A DNA stretch of 64,000 nt from Chrysomallon squamiferum. Lineage: Eukaryota; Animalia; Mollusca. The notes under the pieces were generated by a model. The model saw only the letters and a program-made list of their open reading frames with translations. It had not been told where the DNA came from and did not search any database. Both the position numbers and the translations under genes were made by a program. The stretch's first letter is position 1. Each line of letters opens with the position of its first letter. This document shows positions 22,803 to 52,683 of this stretch, piece by piece. Location: contig CM022671.1 of NCBI GenBank assembly GCA_012295275.1, positions 23,808,001 through 23,872,000 of the forward strand, in the 5' to 3' direction.

Positions 22803-24364
22803 CATTTTATTTTAAAATGTTAATATAATAAAAAGAAGTCTTTGTTATTACTTAAAATTATGTGCTCAATTTGATTAAATAAAGCAGTCAGTTAATATGT
22901 ACTGTTTACAAATCTGAACAGCACTGGATGTCAATTTTATATACAAATTACATATTAATAAATTTGGAAAAAAAAGCCAATATAGAGATAAATAAAAACT
23001 TTTTTTACATATTTAGTTTTTTAAACCTTTCATGAATTCACCTTTATCTGTTAAAAATCAATTTACTTTATACAAATAAAAACTGCTCACAATATAGTTT
23101 TATTTTATTAATTTGTTTTATTTCTTTTTTTTTTTTTTTGTAATCCAAGCTTGGTAGGCTTTGAATGTCAAAATTACCCTATATTTAAAATGGTGAGCAC
23201 TAAAACCATGGCTCTGTGCAAGTCTAAAAGAAAAATACATTTGTGTGTGTATAAACATACAGGCCACTGGATTTTCATTAAACTGGCCAAACTCTTATCT
23301 GCCAGGTGTGTTGAGGTAAATGTGATATATGGTTATTATACAAACGAGCTTTCCCCCATCTCTGTAACATTAAAGTACAGTAAACATTTCTTAAAATTGC
23401 TAATGCCACAGGTAATTTCCCCACCACCGAATTTAAAAAGTAACCATCTTTATGTAATTAAATTTGTGAGGAAGGAAGTAAAAGATAAAGTAAAAATTTT
23501 ATTTGAAGAAAAAGAGTTGTACTGTTATACCATTTCCTCAGTAAATTCTGGATAGGGAATTAGTTGTGTCTAATATAATTACAATATGATGATGATATAA
23601 TAATAATAATGATGCCTCTTAGTCTTATTATTATTACTATTATTGTTGTTATTATTGTTGTTGTTGTTGTTACTATTGTTACCACTGCTACTATTAATAT
23701 TACTTTTACTACAACTACTACTACTATTACTGATGACAGTGATTCTGGAATTTCTTATAAACAAAACTTTTCAACAAACACATCCTCTGGCATTTCAGTA
23801 CATATATACCTATAACTTTACTACAAAAACAAGATATACATGTGTTGTGATATAAATGAACCATGCAGACCAGACAGATGAAAATTATTCATTTAGCAGG
23901 TAATACATTCTCCACCAGACCTCCATTCATCATGTCCAGAGCAATTACCTTCCAAAAAGAAATCCAATTACTTTTTACATGTAAATATATTATATGAGTA
24001 TTTTTTATAAATTTATTTTAAAAATCTTCTGAAGTCTCATTAGCTAAAAAAAAAAAAAAAATATGCTCTGTGTTTTAACACTAGGTAGTGTATGCTTTAT
24101 GGCTATTTTTCATGATCTTTGTAAACTGTTTTCAGTGACGGATATACAAATACCAGTTCAGCATTTGTGAAGAATAAAAGTAAAGAGAAAGACAACTTCT
24201 GTGAGTAAAAAGTATAATGTAATTGAATGTTGTTATTGCTGTTGTTTTGTTGTTTGTATTTTGTTTGTTGCTTTTTGTTGTTATTTATTTATTATTATTT
24301 CATTTTATATTTTATTATTATTTTTATTTTTTTTTTTATTTTTTATTACTTTAATACAATTATT

Positions 24365-24475
24365 ATTTATTTTATTTTATTTTATTTTATTTTATTTTAT
24401 TTTATTTTATTTTATTTTATTTTATTTTATTTTACTTTACTTTTTACTTTACTTTACTTTACTTTACTTTATTTT
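24365..24475. repeat. (ATTTT)n/(ACTTT)n pentanucleotide repeat
   Basis: Directly visible. Confidence 0.9.
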
Positions 24476-27072
24476 ATCTACTTATTTTATTATTATTATT
24501 ATTTATAATTTAAAAAAATCATATAAAAATGTCTGAAAAGAAGGATTCTTTTTTAAAAAAAAAACCAGAAACATTTCCTCTGGCAGACATATCAAAACAA
24601 GCTAACCGCTCTGTGGAGTTTCTTCAAAACAGGACATGACAGTACCATGCAGGTCATTAAATTTAATGATGTGATGCGAAGGGTAGGAAGAAAAGTAAGA
24701 AGAAAACATGTCCTGAATATCCGAGGTCAAAACAAAAATTAACAAGATGAAAGAGGAAGAAAAAATATTTTTAATAATAATAATGATGATGATGATGATG
24801 ATGATGATGATAAAATGTAAATCTAAATCAATACAGAGATGGCGTGGTTATGTGTATGGATGATCCACTTCAATAATAAAATAAATATAAATTAACTTTA
24901 TATAGAAAAAAAAAAATCTGAAAATATAATAAACTATTCAATTACAAGCTTATTTATCAATGAAATATGTATTTGATACAAAAGAAATAATTAAATAATA
25001 ATAATAATAATAATAACAATTATAATAAATTCTCAAGAAAACAAAATTAGGTTGCTTCTGAAAATAATATGTATATTTTTTTTTTTTTTTTTTTTATTTC
25101 CATGTGCAAGAGAGTAAGACTGGTTTATATTTATTAAAATATATGTAAATTACACTGTATATATTAGCCTTACTTTAGATATATGTAATTCCTGTAAACA
25201 TTCACCATCATCATATTTAACTCATACTTCATGGACTTTTTCCATCAACCAAGTTAAATACAGATTTCTAGAAATACTTGCAGACTCTCAAGAGTTGTCT
25301 CCCTTCATATATAAAACCATTAAAACAAATTCTATCCACAATATGCAATACATTTATTTATTAGTTTTACTAATTACAGGTAAAAAAATGTTACAATCAG
25401 TTAATAAAAATACTTTTTTCTGATTTAATTATTTCATGAAGATATTTTAGGCCTTTAAATGAAATATACTGTCTGAAATTTTTGTTTGTTTTTGCTTGTT
25501 TTATTATTATTATTTTTTTTTTTGTTATTTTTTTTTTTTTTTTTTTTTTCTGCTTCTCTTTCTGTGTCTATTTATTTATAGGGTGTGTATGTGACTCTAT
25601 TTGTTTTAAAGATAAAAAAATATATAATAATGTGTATTAATGTAGAGATACTTCAGCAAATTAAACAGAAGCTAATAATAAAAAAAATACATTAAAACAA
25701 TAGCATAAATTTTATTCTATGTACTTTGTTACTAGCATCTGGCTAGAAATTATAAACAAAAAAAACAAAACAAAAAAAATATGTTGATTGAAATAGAAAT
25801 GCAAACAGAAAAATAAATACATATACATTTTAAACACAAGTGATTGTGAATGTAAGTGGCCTTGAAAATACTGAAAGGTTTCCTTAAATGTATCTGGTAT
25901 TCAGATAATATATTTTAAATATGCTCAAAAACATTTTGCTTATTATAATTTTGTTGTATTATTATTAATTAGTTTTATTATAATTAATTAATTTCTAAAA
26001 TGAATGCTATTTCTCTTTAAGTGTTAAAAATATGTGCACAATAGAAATGGAATAACAAGAATCTGACTTTCATAATTCCAGCAGGCACATTTTTTTTTTT
26101 TTTTTTTCATAAATCTATGTCCAGTTTGGATGCACACATTCAAACTGCTGTCAGTGTTATTCATGATAATATATGTTTTATTATTTTAACGAATACTAAA
26201 GAAGAAGTAAAACTGGCAGACAAAACCAATTATTAATGATTATGAAAAGATTAATGATTAATGATTATAAATGAAGATGGTTACCCTTACTGAAAATAGG
26301 TCAACATTTGTTCAAAAAGTTTTATTTACTTAGAAAATATTTGATGTTATTTTTTATATATATATTTTTTAACACTGAATTATACTTAAAATTCAAATGT
26401 TATATGTTTAAACTTTAATATTTATCCTTTCAGTGATTATCAAACACTGAATATGAGGGGTCCAATAAATATATAGAATTTGTTTAATAATAACATAATT
26501 ATGATAGATGTAAAGGATTTTTTGATATGTGAAATAATAGTTTATGGGGTCAGCAACAGTTAAAAGGGATGGGATTCATTTATGTAATCTGTAAACATTT
26601 ACAATATCACCATGAATAATCCAAATATTATACTAACACTATATACAATAATATATATATAGTAATTAGTATATCAGGTAAAATAATTAGTATTTACTGA
26701 GAATGATGAAATTTGTCTATGTTATTGTGAACATATTTTTGATTCTGAAATAAAAGTTTGTTTTTCTTAAAAATCCTACTGATGTGTAAAGATTATGAGC
26801 ATAAAGTGAATGACAAATAACCCAGGATCTGGTATATTTTTAATTTTAAATTCATTCATAATATAATTATTATCTACTTCTTAATAACATCTCGGCAGTT
26901 GTCTAATGGATGACCATGATGGCGATTGAAGACATCAAATGTTGTACGATCTCGTACCCTTTAGGAGATGCTATCAATGTATCATGACTCATTCAGACGA
27001 ATACAAAATAGGAGTGAGTGTGAAAAATCAGACAAACATGCAAAACAAATTTAAATATAAAACTGTACTCAC

Positions 27073-27094
27073 TTGTCTTGATTCTGTTCCACAT
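27073..27094 (-). CDS. Candidate alternative micro first exon (MWNRIKT+1 nt), phase 1
   Basis: ATG TGG AAC AGA ATC AAG ACA A|gtgagt; same phase as the exon 100 bp upstream. Confidence 0.3.
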
Positions 27095-27197
27095 AAAGAC
27101 AACAATGAAAAAGAATAAAAAGTAATAAACATTAATAAATAAATAAGCAGCAGATGAACATAAATCGTATTAAATGTAAACAATAAAGAAAACTAAC

Positions 27198-27207
27198 CTG
27201 TCGCCAT
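27198..27207 (-). CDS. First coding exon (MAT+1 nt) of large unidentified minus-strand gene running off the left end
   Basis: aaaATGGCG housekeeping-type start context followed by CAG|gttagt donor; sits at the CpG-poor / CpG-retaining boundary. Confidence 0.55.
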
Positions 27208-27540
27208 TTTTCCTTTGATCCTGTTTCAAAAGCCGCCAAATGATATCATTTCCGCATTGTTCTGTTACGGTAATTCCCTCCCTTTATTTGTAATACGACT
27301 AACAAAATTAATAGAAGTTAATGATAACTGGAAGGTAAACTTTCCATTCGTTTAAAAAAAAAAAAATTGTAAAAATTAAAAAAAGACAGAATGAAAAAAA
27401 GAAGAAAAAAAAAAACTGAAGAAGTAAAAGAGATGAATTTCAGTAGGCCTGCTTAGTTATTGAAACAGAAGCAACAATTTTAGCCTTTGCAACTTAGTGA
27501 TTAAATCGAGAATAGTTTGCAATTAAATTATTACTTTTTG

Positions 27541-27595
<55 letters not shown>
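27541..27595. repeat. (AAT)n microsatellite
   Basis: Directly visible. Confidence 0.95.
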
Positions 27596-27596
<1 letters not shown>

Positions 27597-29577
27597 TAGA
27601 AGTAGTTATAGATGTAGTAATAGTAGTCGTCGTCGTCGTAGTAGTAGTAGCAGTATGAGCACTATTGTTGTTGCTGTTGTTGTTATGTAAGGTACCATAA
27701 CCAACGTAGCCAAATGTATCAGTCACTTCACTATATCTGGTAATTAACGGCTGCCAGCCAGAATACCGTCACTGTCTTTCTTGATGTCTCTGTCAGAATA
27801 TCTGACATAGATTAAATTTTGTATCTAAGATGCGTAATGCTGGGAATAAATAAAATATTGCAATTGTTATATCGAAAGGTTCATGAACCTGTGCTGAACA
27901 TCAGACGAAGTGTGTCAGACAGACACTAATTTCAAACTATAAATCTTTTAAATTAATTCTCCTCTCCTGAAGTAAGCTAAATAATTTGGATTTCATTTTA
28001 CGAAACTTTCACAACAGTGTAAAACTTCCGAAATGTTTGTTTTGTAAACCAGACTGGATCATGAACATAAGATATTAAAAATAAGAAATGTTTCACAAAT
28101 GAACTTGTCTTTTTTATTTTTATTTTATTTTATTTATTAAATGTTTATTTTTTTTTTTTTTTATTTTATTATTTATTAAATGTTTATTTTTATTTTATTT
28201 TATTTTATTATTATTATTTTTTTTTTTTTACCTAAAATATCACCTACAAAGCTACATTTACACGCATGTATTTTACATTTAGTTTAATTTGTATTTGTTA
28301 CACTTCTTGTGGAATGTTTTCTTAAGAAACTAACAGCAGACAGCTCCAAGTGTTTCTTTCTGTATCTACGATTTGGATTAAGTCCGAAGAATCACGTTTG
28401 AAATGACACCTGCCCACATGGTTGAAAAACCATGCATTGAGTGCAGAATCTAGAAACCTCAGTTCGCATCTAGTTATTTTCCGTTTCAACCAGAGCTCCA
28501 GCAATGGTTGATGATTTTTTTATTTTTTTTTTTTAAATATTCCCGTATTTGAGAAAATAAATATAAAAGTCACTTCCTCTAAATCGAAAAAAAAAGAGAA
28601 GAGGATTAGATATTCGCATCGTAGCAGCCGATCCAGAATCTCTCATTGTCCATCTAGACATAAACCAGACGCATGACGCTATTTAACTGTGGATTAAGTA
28701 CACATTGTTATTAAATAAAATTATTTTAGTACAAAAAGATACAGGAATGAGAAGTTTCGCCTTTGTATGAGATCGTTCTGAGAGTAAAATAGGAGGAACA
28801 TATCAAGAAATATTGACATCTCTTTAAAGTTATCTAACATCCTAATTTAACTTCATCTTAAGATGACCCATATTTCTAGATTATGATTGTAATAACATGA
28901 TTATGCCCGTCATGATAACTTTCTCTGTCAAACTGAACAATTCTTTGCCTTTGTTAATGTTTCGCATATTTAAAATAATAATAATAATAATAATAAAATA
29001 AAATAACTGTTTTAAATTCTGTTAAAAACAGGATGATGCCAGATATTCCAGTAAGGTAAACAGTGAGAAAAGGTGTTAACATTGCAATATTACTGATAAC
29101 ATATTTTGTGGATTCGCTTCAAATAACTTTTTGGAGTTAGTCATTCTTGTGTACCTTATTAGACAAGTACGTTATAAATTACAAACGGGACAAAAGAAAT
29201 AAATAAAACTAAAAACGGTGAATAAACCTCACGAATAATGAAAAAAAAAAAAAAATGTCAAAGGTAAGATATATTTAAAAGATAAGACAAATGGATTACA
29301 TGTAAAACGTTACTGCAAGCTGACCTGCAGAACACTGGGAACATTAATACTTTCATATGTTTTTCTACATGTTCGTCACGACGAATTATTTGTCCACAAA
29401 AGTAGGCGTATGACGTTGATGTAAAAGAAGTCATCATGAAGTTGATGGCGAGACACAAGGATAATTTAATGACCTAAATTTACCTCCAAGACAAAACAGG
29501 AAAGAAAAAAAAAAAAAAAAAAAAAAAAGAATTAATTGTTTGCGACTAAAATAGCGTTCTGCGTTCATGCGGCAACA

Positions 29578-29609
29578 TATATAAGGATTAAGGCGGAGGA
29601 AGATTAGTC
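29578..29609 (+). promoter_or_regulatory. TATA box plus initiator for the LPMO-like gene
   Basis: TATATAAG at 29578-29585 and Inr-like ATTAGTC at 29603-29609 (about 28 nt spacing), ~420 nt upstream of the ATG. Confidence 0.5.
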
Positions 29610-29866
29610 GAGTCTAAGGAGTTTCTTTCAACGAATGACACTGCAGATTCACGTCTTAGGATTTCAGAAAGATACTCTTTGACTGATTCTTTTAGAGATA
29701 CAGTTGTCCTGTTCTGTCTACGAAGAAACAAATACAGTGTAATTTCTAATATTTAAAAGTGAATTCAAATTTGGAACTGAATTCAGTTTTTGGATGTATA
29801 AAGTATATTTTGAAACAAAAACGGAAAATTTCAGAGTTGTTAAAAATTAGAAAATATTAGAATTAA

Positions 29867-29897
<31 letters not shown>

Positions 29898-30023
29898 GAA
29901 ATAGCAGGAGAAGACGAAAAAGAAAAAGGAAGAACAGATACAAAAGAAAAAGCTTAGAAAACAAAAGGAATTTTGTTACACAGTGCTAAACAAACAAACA
30001 AAGAAAAAAAAAAAAAAACAATT

Positions 30024-30194
30024 ATGTATCTTGTCAGATTTTCAATACAATCAGCAGTGTATATGTTTTTCATTGCCTCTGTGGCAGGAAGAGGTCGTTT
30101 GGTGGATCCACCCAACAGATCCAGTTTGTGGAGGGAGGGCTACCTACAACTAATCAACAGAAATGATTCGGATTTAAACTGTGGAGGTGATATG
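30024..30194 (+). CDS. AA15/LPMO_10 (chitin-binding type-4)-fold secreted protein, exon 1
   Basis: Signal peptide MYLVRFSIQSAVYMFFIASVAG then RGRLVDPPNRSSLWREG...DLNCGG, matching the family start HGRLxxPPxRxSxWRxG...LxCGG; donor ATG|gtaagt, phase 0. Exact start Met less certain. Confidence 0.85.
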
Positions 30195-30540
30195 GTAAGT
30201 ATAAATATGTTCATGAGATTTTCCCATGTTTAATATTAAAAAAATAAATAAATAAATAAATGTTTATCACGAGTAGCCGATATTCAATAAGACTAAAAAA
30301 ATCATTTGATACAATAACAACATGAAAAGATGTAATATATTATTCTAATAAAACAAAAATTATTTAATATATATATACATATATTCTTTATCGAAAGGAC
30401 TCGAAAAAGAAGACAGCAAAGGTAATAACAAAGCGATAAAGCAAAATTTCATATGCACATATTTGTATGCAAGATACAAGCTTATCATTCCTGCAAACAA
30501 ATACTATAATATTACATTTATCTTGATATTCCGCTTTCAG

Positions 30541-30922
30541 CTTCCTTATTTACCATTCCAACTTAATGATGGATGGTGCGGTGTTTGCGGGGATTCCATT
30601 TTCGAGCCACGAAATCATGAACTTGGAGGTCTGTACGTGCCTCAGTTTACAATATCTCGACGTTACTCGGCAAACTCAAAATACATTGACGCAGCCGTCC
30701 TTGTAGAAGAGTTTCTGGGTGGCTTTTTCGAATTCTCGCTTTGCGCCCACAACGAAAAGAATGAAAAGGTTCACCAAGAATGCTTAGACGAAAACCGTCT
30801 TCGAATTTATGGATATGGAACTCGCTACTTCCCGCTAAGAGCCGGACTGCACCGACTGCGTCTTGAAATACCTGCAGGTCTTGTGTGTGAACACTGCGTC
30901 CTTCAGTGGCGATGGATTACAG
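30541..30922 (+). CDS. AA15/LPMO_10-fold protein, exon 2
   Basis: Acceptor ctttcag; encodes GWCGVCGD..PRNHELGG..GFFEFSLC..QECLD..LEIPAGLVCEHCVLQWRWIT, all family motifs; donor ACAG|gtgag, phase 1. Confidence 0.93.
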
Positions 30923-31452: not shown

Positions 31453-31586
31453 AACAATACACTCATACTGACTGCAGACTGTTACCACATCGTCGTCATT
31501 GTTTTCAGTGGATGCAGTACATCAACTGTGCTGACATTTCCATCATGCCATCTATTAACCCACGATTTTTCAACGTCTACCACTAA
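31453..31586 (+). CDS. LPMO-like gene, alternative terminal exon 3a (isoform a, 228 aa)
   Basis: Acceptor gtcttctcttggcag, phase 1; encodes (E)QYTHTDCRLLPHRRHCFQWMQYINCADISIMPSINPRFFNVYH* with the family C-terminal CADI motif; AATAAA at 31705. Confidence 0.8.
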
Positions 31587-33553: not shown

Positions 33554-33792
33554 AAAAATTCACTCGTAATAAGTGCAATGGCCTGGTCTTTCCCAGAACA
33601 TGTCTGGTGCCGTGGCAGTATCAGAACTGTGCTGACATTGCCATTTCGGAACAGACGACCCGGAAGACACGGCTCCAAGAGACAATCACTGAAGCCTTGG
33701 CCGATCTTGCAGATTCTGATTTTTTTTGGTTTTTGCCTTTTCTTAACAGGTTTCCCTCATTAGGATTAATGGCCTCTCTGCTTGATGCTTAG
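33554..33792 (+). CDS. LPMO-like gene, alternative terminal exon 3b (isoform b, 263 aa)
   Basis: Acceptor ttactttcag, phase 1; encodes (E)KFTRNKCNGLVFPRTCLVPWQYQNCADIAISEQTTRK...LMASLLDA* with the CADI motif. Confidence 0.82.
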
Positions 33793-51426: not shown

Positions 51427-51532
51427 GTAATGTACTCAAATATCATTAAAACGTTTTATCTTCGCGAGCGAATTATAACACGTATGCAGAACAATAAAAA
51501 GAAAAAAAGAGATGACAATGAAAAAAACTTAC

Positions 51533-52395
51533 TTTTTGTCGCAGTCACAGTGACTCATGGTGGTCAGTCTGTAGTTAAACAGATTATATTTCCAATTGAA
51601 TCGTCCTATGATGTATTTGCAGTTATCATGGGTTCTGCAGCAAGAGTCCGTTCCGGCGTCGTAGCCGAGGTCATTATAGGACTCAGCGATGTCCCCGTCC
51701 CCGCACCATTTAGTCCCCGGAAAAATGAACCACCCCGACATCAGGTCTCTTTTGACCCGCAGGCGTGTTGCATTGACTGAAATTTCAGATTGCTCCGATA
51801 TATCGTTATTTGTTCCTATTCTCTTTCGAATGGCCTCTGCCGCTAATTTTCTTTTCTGTTCTTCAATTCTTGCTTTTTTGTAAAACATGTGACACTGTCG
51901 CCGTTGACCTTTCACGTCAACGTAGTTTTTGAATATTCCAAGAGAATTTCTGTTTCCTAGTGCGGAATAAACACTGCCATGTTTCAACACTGAAGCTGAC
52001 ATATATGCCTCAGTGATGTTTCTCCGAACACTGCTAGATATGAATGATTTTGCGCTTATAAATGAATCAATGAATGTCAATATGGCTTTTATATTTTTAG
52101 TATATTCACAGTCTTTTATCTCCCCGTGTTGGGTGACCAACTGAATAAGTCTTCTTCCATCACAAACTTGTCTTAGCGACAGACTGTCTGGACTGTCCAA
52201 AAACCCAGTGGTTTCTAGTATCAAAACCCTTTTATAAGCTATCCTTAATTCTCTTTCATTATTTTCATTTAAATTAACCAAAGCGAAATTTTTCGACATA
52301 AGCGAATAACCGAATTTTCGTCCGTTTACGGGAACCGTGAGAATAAAGCAGATAAAAATAGCCACCCCTGTAACACCCGCCCGCATCTCGACCAT
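51533..52395 (-). CDS. Group III (bee-venom-type) secreted phospholipase A2, exon 1; full protein 351 aa
   Basis: Signal peptide, long prodomain, RVKR site, IFPGTKWCGDG Ca-binding loop, DSCCRTHDNC active-site motif, SHCDCD; donor AA|gtaagt at 51532, phase 2. Confidence 0.95.
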
Positions 52396-52683
52396 GACCG
52401 AAAAATTAACGTCTGACTCTTACGGCGGCAACAGACGAGAGTGTCGTCTGCTTGTGCTCGAGGAGAACGCTGCGTGACGTTTTCACTGTAGGACCGGGCC
52501 CGCGCGAGAAAACCTACCGGCTTGTTGAACGTGTAATCGGTAAACCCCGCTTCGGTCTACACGTCCACGTAGGTCTAGTTAAACACAGGAACAAGCGTTC
52601 AGTAACAACTGACATTGTATAATGTTGGTCAAACGAAAACTTCCTTCTTCAGTTAATTCAGCGCAGGTGTTGCACAATTATTA

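Follow-up and report, generated by a model that had tools for sequence, protein, structure and literature searches.

The gene analysed here lies on the forward strand of a 64,000-nucleotide stretch of the scaly-foot snail genome (Chrysomallon squamiferum, GCA_012295275.1, contig CM022671.1, positions 23,808,001 to 23,872,000; hereafter the window). It encodes a homologue of the AA15 lytic polysaccharide monooxygenases (LPMOs) in which both histidines of the copper-binding brace are replaced. Sequence comparison places the gene in a gastropod-wide clade of brace-less AA15-fold proteins, and the abalone orthologue ranks among the major matrix proteins of nacre, with enrichment in the acid-insoluble fraction. 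We favour, with moderate confidence, the view that the protein is a secreted, disulfide-locked, non-catalytic scaffold or adaptor of gastropod extracellular matrices, the nacre framework among them. An earlier note on this DNA had drawn attention to 30024..30922. The gene extends past this element, downstream to 33792, and has an additional upstream exon ending at 24200.

As marks of an active AA15 we took the N-terminal His1, the second brace His, Ala89 and the second-sphere Glu, an axial Tyr or Phe, ten cysteines on a β-sandwich and a flat face, besides copper binding with oxidative cleavage of chitin or cellulose. The site of TdAA15A (PDB 5msz), the only solved AA15, consists of His1, His91, Ala89 and Tyr184, and its flat face lies between Tyr24 and Tyr166; in the passages on the active site, Sabbadin et al. 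2018 (PMC5823890) described the site as absolutely conserved across 214 CAZy members. We counted the mature chain of the window protein from Arg1, after a predicted 22-residue signal peptide, and cleavage would occur directly before this residue. Position 1 is Arg (AGA in the DNA and in the RNA contigs), the second brace His is Leu94, and Ala89 is replaced by Glu92. The axial residue is preserved as Tyr185 in both isoforms. Two residues before it, the second-sphere Glu is Met183 in the isoform with last exon 3a and Trp183 in that with 3b. Counting from Arg1, no His appears before position 61, and the signal peptide has none either. The earlier note had read the Arg and Leu codons, the Met or Trp, the axial Tyr, the ten cysteines and the intact frame correctly. 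Ten cysteines are present in the mature chain of either isoform, all exon junctions are GT-AG, and the frames are open, giving products of 228 aa (3a) and 263 aa (3b). Without the histidine brace there is neither a T-shaped copper site nor oxidative cleavage. Since both copper ligands are lost, the window protein very probably cannot work as an LPMO.

The fold appears to have survived this loss. Exon 2 alone matched TdAA15A with an E value of 3.7e-19, so the likeness is not due to chance. For comparison across the family we made a census of 280 domains cut from 275 of 299 proteins, 262 of them with a residue at position 1. This sample is biased by brace-less queries and includes near-duplicates, so its counts are not family frequencies. 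Of the 37 columns at least 90% conserved in the 214 braced domains, the window protein kept 30, and four of the seven changed columns were His1, the second His, the Glu (present in 96% of braced domains) and the axial residue (Phe to Tyr). The fold was thus kept while the site was lost. On the flat face, the Tyr24 position is Arg and the Tyr166 position is Tyr or Phe. An aromatic residue occupies the former in 196 of 214 braced domains versus 1 of 10 clade rows, and the latter in 8 of 10 clade rows.

The β-sandwich was predicted from the Gigantopelta orthologue, whose mature long isoform, not the window protein itself, was modelled by AlphaFold from a 115-row alignment (mean predicted local distance difference test score 87.7). 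The model matched 5msz with E 1e-17, Z 25.8 and a root-mean-square deviation of 3.9 over 184 aligned positions, as compared with Z of at most 14.6 for AA10 and about 9 for AA9. Pfam applied to single exons gave E 0.046 for exon 2 and no match for exons 1, 3a and 3b, and the whole orthologues passed the cut-off. Only LPMO_10-type clusters and one bacterial set were returned by the ESM Atlas. In the alignment with 5msz, each alternative last exon starts immediately ahead of the Tyr166 position and spans the loop bridged by cysteines, the Glu and axial positions and the final strand. The window protein is an AA15 homologue by sequence and predicted fold; having lost His1, the second brace His, Ala89 and the Glu, it does not qualify as an active AA15.

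The best match was Gigantopelta aegis LOC121367712 (P0001), 76% identical over exon 2, which has Arg1, the Leu and an equivalent pair of last exons, one short and one long. Exon 3a corresponds to its isoform X2, and the core of exon 3b is identical to its isoform X1 at 22 of 32 residues. Four Haliotis species also carried Arg1 and Leu, and H. rufescens likewise has two last exons. Patella and Lottia (Tyr1) and Pomacea came from a profile search, with Batillaria alongside (Gly, predicted gene models). For the tree, 83 domains were hand-picked from the 280 (12 Arg1, 25 other brace-defective, 46 braced). Under LG+G4 the eight clade rows formed one side of a branch with support 100/100, in a bootstrap that had not settled, and spanned limpets, abalones, Gigantopelta and caenogastropods. 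The same clade appeared, with support 98, in a quick tree that took in 117 of 145 domains. Both trees were built without the window protein, which was placed by pairwise identity: 140/194 residues with Gigantopelta, 105/188 with Haliotis and 90/187 with Patella, as against 71/183 with a braced Gigantopelta paralogue. By these identities the source of the window is most likely a peltospirid-like snail.

We also noted that the domain end is duplicated as two alternative last exons in the window, in Gigantopelta and in Haliotis rufescens. The core of window exon 3b is closer to the short than to the long Haliotis exon (scores 98 vs 67), so the pairing of last exons between lineages is ambiguous.

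Five sequencing runs contain part of this stretch, and the four of them recorded as RNA, all of one study, were aligned as contigs to the window and revealed that the gene is spliced. The GT-AG joints between exons 1 and 2 and between exons 2 and 3a were present in runs X1 and X2. Run X1 also covers introns, so that coverage alone could come from DNA or unspliced RNA, and the joints therefore constitute the RNA evidence. Contigs of two runs (X2 and X4) covered the Arg codon and those of all four covered the Leu codon, with no differing letter in the contigs listed. A sequencing or assembly error at these codons, which the earlier note had argued against, was rejected, as the RNA contigs agree and the orthologues carry Arg1 and Leu. 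No joint between exons 2 and 3b was seen in the RNA contigs of the four runs, and 3b splicing is predicted from the Gigantopelta isoform X1 model.

Within exon 2 (30559-30883), the RNA contigs and the window differed at four codons, each with a change of amino acid, and by one compensating indel pair. None of these differences touched the former brace positions, and some were in low-depth contigs. They may represent alleles or population differences.

The earlier note would have been overturned by a different first exon supplying His1. One contig of run X2 joined exon 1 at 30088, via an internal AG at 30086-87, and was preceded by 185 non-matching letters. The 30 of these letters that were listed map to 24171-24200, with GT next to them. 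The splice from 24200 to 30088 drops the ATG and the signal peptide and brings an in-frame TGA directly before the Arg codon, and therefore supplies no His1. A His1 exon was thus rejected for the sole alternative 5′ exon observed (30 of 185 letters, from reads confined to that region); 5′ exons further upstream, other than that at 24171-24200, are possible. The spliced form is perhaps a non-coding or regulatory isoform.

The same contig, which splices past the start codon, and the exon 2 contigs with their four amino-acid changes would fit a decaying or mis-assembled copy without function. However, the frames are open, splicing in RNA is canonical, the ten cysteines are intact, orthologues occur across gastropods, the two last exons recur in Gigantopelta and Haliotis rufescens, and peptides are found in shell. 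The dead-gene reading is largely refuted, and we give it a negligible probability. Overall, these results bear out the earlier description of an expressed, conserved and probably non-catalytic LPMO-fold protein, and the note's refuting case of an unexpressed gene lacking orthologues did not arise.

We then considered what the arginine itself means. Among the 262 domains, 214 had both brace histidines, 45 had neither and three had one. Loss is joint, which implies that the two histidines go together. The 47 rows without His at position 1 carried Arg (14), Gln (11), Asn (7), Gly (6), Tyr (4) or one of five singletons. Single-base neighbours of His codons (Arg, Gln, Asn, Tyr, Leu) made up 37 of these 47, in rows that are not independent. 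The note had stressed that AGA differs from CAY at all three positions; CGY is one step from CAY, and the remaining steps are synonymous. Outside the clade, Arg1 was found in eight further proteins. The seven with species names are all molluscan, and the genera and species concerned are Aplysia, Saccostrea, Solemya, Argopecten, Ylistrum and Patella vulgata. Arg1 as one clade was rejected, with six changes on the 83-domain tree, at least two of them forced by starred branches, and an approximately unbiased (AU) test p-AU of 0.003. Part of the Arg1 group already stood apart in the quick tree before the AU test. The rejection of one clade for all 37 brace-defective rows was weaker (p-AU 0.021), with long branches in play. 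Brace loss is, on these alignments and trees, recurrent across animal AA15s. Within the clade, Gigantopelta and Haliotis carry Arg at position 1, whereas limpets have Tyr and caenogastropods Gly, and Arg1 arose more than once, so the idea that Arg1 defines a clade did not stand.

A brachiopod and decapods (both Gln1), a wasp (Tyr1) and several bivalves also have brace-less homologues. P0058, P0071, P0075, P0076, P0198 and P0287 are examples from outside the gastropods.

Arg1 together with the N-terminal amine might form an oxyanion site for phosphate, sulfate, carbonate or a phosphorylated residue, convergent with brace-less fungal AA9 proteins. Frandsen et al. in 2019 reportedly described a fungal brace-less AA9 protein with an N-terminal Arg and phosphate binding. 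LsAA9B, cited as a brace-less fungal AA9 protein in the part of PMC10354095 concerned, has a phosphoserine near its N-terminus. The window protein, Gigantopelta and four Haliotis species share Arg1 at an overall identity of about 55%, its recurrence in the eight proteins outside the clade points the same way, and Arg177 was invariant in 9 of 9 clade rows. However, position 1 is Tyr or Gly in other orthologues, the AU test rejected a single Arg1 origin, and single-base neighbours of His account for most replacements. Because Arg lies one mutation from His, its occurrence argues little for anion binding. We consider an oxyanion site improbable.

Three residues, Pro37, His139 and Arg177, were invariant in all nine clade rows and rare outside them, in an alignment with many gaps around 170-182. 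His139, present in 8% of braced domains, raised the question of a rebuilt metal site, for example of His139, an acidic or amide residue 91 and Tyr185, which would make the protein a metal binder or give it weak redox activity. Residue 91 is Glu, Asp or Asn, and the axial Tyr was kept in 8 of 9 clade rows. Against such a site, the abalone isoform present in shell carries an axial Ile and has Asn where the second-sphere Glu would stand, and a single His makes no brace. A rebuilt metal site is very unlikely.

Evidence for a matrix role, which the earlier note had proposed, came from shell proteomes. Seven of the peptide tables of PMC6003135 contain LVIPQDLTCR, a peptide of the Haliotis orthologue that belongs there to idb_66139. 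This 164-aa sequence, which the authors took from their mantle assembly, matches the Arg1 protein of Haliotis and shares its His-less FLGGYFEF motif. Table 1 of that paper (Mann et al. 2018) counts it among 77 major shell proteins under the label 'uncharacterized' and mentions no more than a short repeat. It made up 1.06, 0.82 and 0.34% of insoluble nacre, as compared with 0.14, 0.03 and none in soluble nacre and 0.02 and 0.06 in insoluble prisms. The peptide tables hold four of its peptides, two of them from the long last exon. According to the methods given there, the shells had been bleached or sand-blasted in three cleaning methods. In another abalone shell protein, CLC_18633, the second His is Leu within a peptide, and its His1 lies outside peptide coverage. 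LUSP-14 of the Lottia shell (Lotgi1|226726 = P0110) has lost both histidines (Asn1 and Arg) and falls outside the clade (entries in PMC4094399). LPMO_10 domains have already been listed among shell proteins, with no comment on the brace in the passages concerned (PMC4094399, PMC11464482).

The published 164-aa H. laevigata sequence looks letter-identical by eye to the C-terminal part of P0004, which is named H. asinina. The H. rubra record differs from the 164-aa sequence, and this might be a labelling or database question.

The scaly-foot snail itself offered a probable counterpart. Csqv2.0S_3028_38.35 is reported as a shell protein with PF03067 at 24-213 in the supplement of PMC11871041, and these limits correspond in the window protein to Gly24 and the Ile of CADI. 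The BLAST match of this protein to LUSP-14 is given there as 34.7% over 219 columns with 126 mismatches, 8 gap openings and query range 5-216. The window 3b isoform against P0110 gave 35.2%, 219, 127, 8 and 5-216. The summed difference was 1 for window 3b and at least 9 for all 304 other proteins with a match. Csqv2.0S_3028_38.35 is thus probably the window gene or a close orthologue, by alignment statistics alone. In the tables available it was found in three of five shell samples and was absent from the scale SEQUEST table; its expression row stands in a table titled 'scale', an inconsistency of the supplement (PMC11871041). The Gigantopelta shell protein ctg2958-0.6-1 was not counted as an orthologue, as its domain ends at 188-190 vs 207/213 in P0001/P0003 and its BLAST figures differ.

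Several observations weigh against a matrix scaffold. According to the expression row of PMC11871041, Csqv2.0S_3028_38.35 reached 59.8 transcripts per million in the oesophageal gland, with 2.3 in mantle, 0.7 in scale epithelium, 0.35 in gill and 0.27 in foot, so that the gland exceeded mantle about 26-fold. Its orthogroup paralogue showed the same bias (158.8 vs 1.0). Since oesophageal-gland expression dominates, a purely shell role is disfavoured. Among the rows listed, the Gigantopelta orthogroup partner ctg696-5.17-1 appeared only in orthogroup tables and not in shell tables. The Lottia orthologue, id 159528, was not found in the Lottia shell proteome text or five supplements (PMC4094399), as far as these sources extend. 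In the abalone shell tables there is also a braced paralogue, CLC_1125, with the second His kept, and shell location is therefore not tied to brace loss alone. The loss of the surface aromatic at the Tyr24 position weakens the case for chitin binding by the window protein, which is putative. Expression in mineralising tissue would fit the abalone sequence, taken from a mantle assembly, but the probable scaly-foot counterpart is expressed mostly in the oesophageal gland, which the earlier note's idea does not predict.

These data might instead point to a non-catalytic lectin-like or lining protein of the foregut or the symbiont-bearing oesophageal gland, with shell presence secondary or an abalone co-option. 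The expression bias of the counterpart and its paralogue fits this, as does the Lottia result. However, the counterpart was identified by alignment statistics and not by sequence, and the abalone orthologue is major, nacre-enriched and acid-insoluble under three cleaning methods. The clade also occurs in limpets, abalones and apple snails, which are not known to have such a symbiont organ. A foregut protein is therefore rather unlikely in our judgement.

A scaffold or adaptor of extracellular matrices remains the reading we prefer. In unverified gene models of Pomacea and Batillaria a long N-terminal extension precedes the domain, so a free N-terminal amine seems unneeded. The protein would be secreted after signal cleavage before Arg1, and the disulfide-locked β-sandwich, predicted for the orthologue, would be retained. 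Its remodelled flat face may bind matrix polysaccharide or matrix proteins. The two last exons would swap the loop beside the former active site together with the tail, giving two binding variants. A wider and more tentative proposal is that molluscs repeatedly made the AA15 copper enzyme into copper-free matrix proteins, that this clade became a major nacre framework protein whose last exons change its partner, and that the vent snail redeployed it to the symbiont gland. The features of the gene are collected below.

Table 1. Features of the brace-less AA15-fold gene in window coordinates
Feature	Position	Strand	Basis
Upstream exon, 3′ end	24171..24200	+	GT donor at 24201; loose end of RNA contig from run X2
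Candidate acceptor AG of upstream exon	24134-35	+	sequence only; its 5′ boundary lies outside the contig letters listed
Signal peptide, predicted, 22 residues, without His	30024..30089	+	hydropathy scan and alignment with braced homologues
ATG start codon	30024	+	sequence
Exon 1 coding part, 57 codons	30024..30194	+	GT-AG joint to exon 2 in RNA runs X1, X2
AGA, Arg at mature position 1 (His1 in braced AA15)	30090..30092	+	sequence; RNA contigs; orthologues
Exon 2, LPMO β-sandwich core, mature 36-162	30541..30922	+	Gigantopelta P0001 and 5msz matches
CTG, Leu94 at second brace His position (His91 of TdAA15A)	30715..30717	+	sequence; RNA contigs
Glu92 (exon 2) at Ala89 position of TdAA15A		+	alignment
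His139 codon, exon 2	30850-30852	+	clade-invariant residue
Alternative last exon 3a, short tail, stop	31453..31586	+	GT-AG joint from exon 2 in runs X1, X2
Exon 3a residues Tyr165, Met183, Tyr185	Met183 31512-14; Tyr185 31518-20	+	sequence
Alternative last exon 3b, long tail (acidic then hydrophobic), stop	33554..33792	+	likeness to Gigantopelta isoform X1 model
Exon 3b residues Phe165, Trp183, Tyr185	Trp183 33613-15; Tyr185 33619-21	+	sequence

The window DNA is AT-rich, with GC of 0.21-0.36 in 2-kb bins. On its minus strand, a 296-codon open frame (51532-52419) carries at its end the first part of a phospholipase A2 domain (PF05826, E 1.5e-24), and is apparently one exon of a secreted group III-type phospholipase A2 gene.

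The value of these findings lies less in the arginine than in the gastropod-wide brace-less clade, its link to a major but uncharacterised protein of nacre and the repeated brace loss in molluscs. That nacre protein gains a fold and a testable hypothesis. Labels such as 'LPMO' or 'chitin-binding type-4' in mollusc shell proteomes can hide proteins without copper ligands, and animal LPMO counts from domain matches therefore overstate the number of enzymes. The residues found at position 1 (His, Arg, Tyr and Gly) provide a natural series with which to study the role of a copper-free LPMO fold. The literature searched, a body that leaves most subscription journals outside its coverage, yielded no account of animal AA15 proteins lacking the brace, and the parts of PMC10952591, PMC7924993, PMC11464482 and PMC7142155 concerned make no mention of them.

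The protein is not a new kind of system, as fungi are known to have LPMO-like proteins without a brace and pseudoenzymes are widespread. It resembles AA15 LPMOs such as TdAA15A (Pfam PF03067) in its signal peptide, ten cysteines, predicted β-sandwich, axial Tyr and aromatic residue at the Tyr166 position, and differs in the replacement of His1 by Arg, His91 by Leu, Ala89 by Glu, the second-sphere Glu by Met or Trp, and Tyr24 by Arg. With LsAA9B it shares an LPMO fold without a histidine brace; LsAA9B reportedly also has an N-terminal Arg, like the Arg at the predicted mature position 1 of the window protein. Unlike LsAA9B, the window protein belongs to the AA15 and not the AA9 lineage (Z 25.8 vs about 9) and to an animal and not a fungal host, and its Arg is not fixed in the gastropod clade. 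The X325/Bim1 proteins also have an LPMO-like fold with no polysaccharide cleavage detected, but keep the brace and bind copper, whereas the window protein lacks the ligands (sections of PMC7924993 and PMC10952591 on these proteins). LUSP-14 of Lottia is likewise a shell matrix protein with a chitin_binding_3 (LPMO_10) domain devoid of both histidines. It represents a separate lineage and, in the parts of PMC4094399 that describe it, a longer gene model with a low-complexity phosphorylated C-terminal part. A published counterpart is idb_66139 of Haliotis, an orthologue whose FLGGYFEF motif likewise lacks the His; in contrast to the window protein it is a fragment without the N-terminus (Arg1 lies outside mass spectrometry coverage), has an axial Ile, and appears without an LPMO domain in the published table entry.
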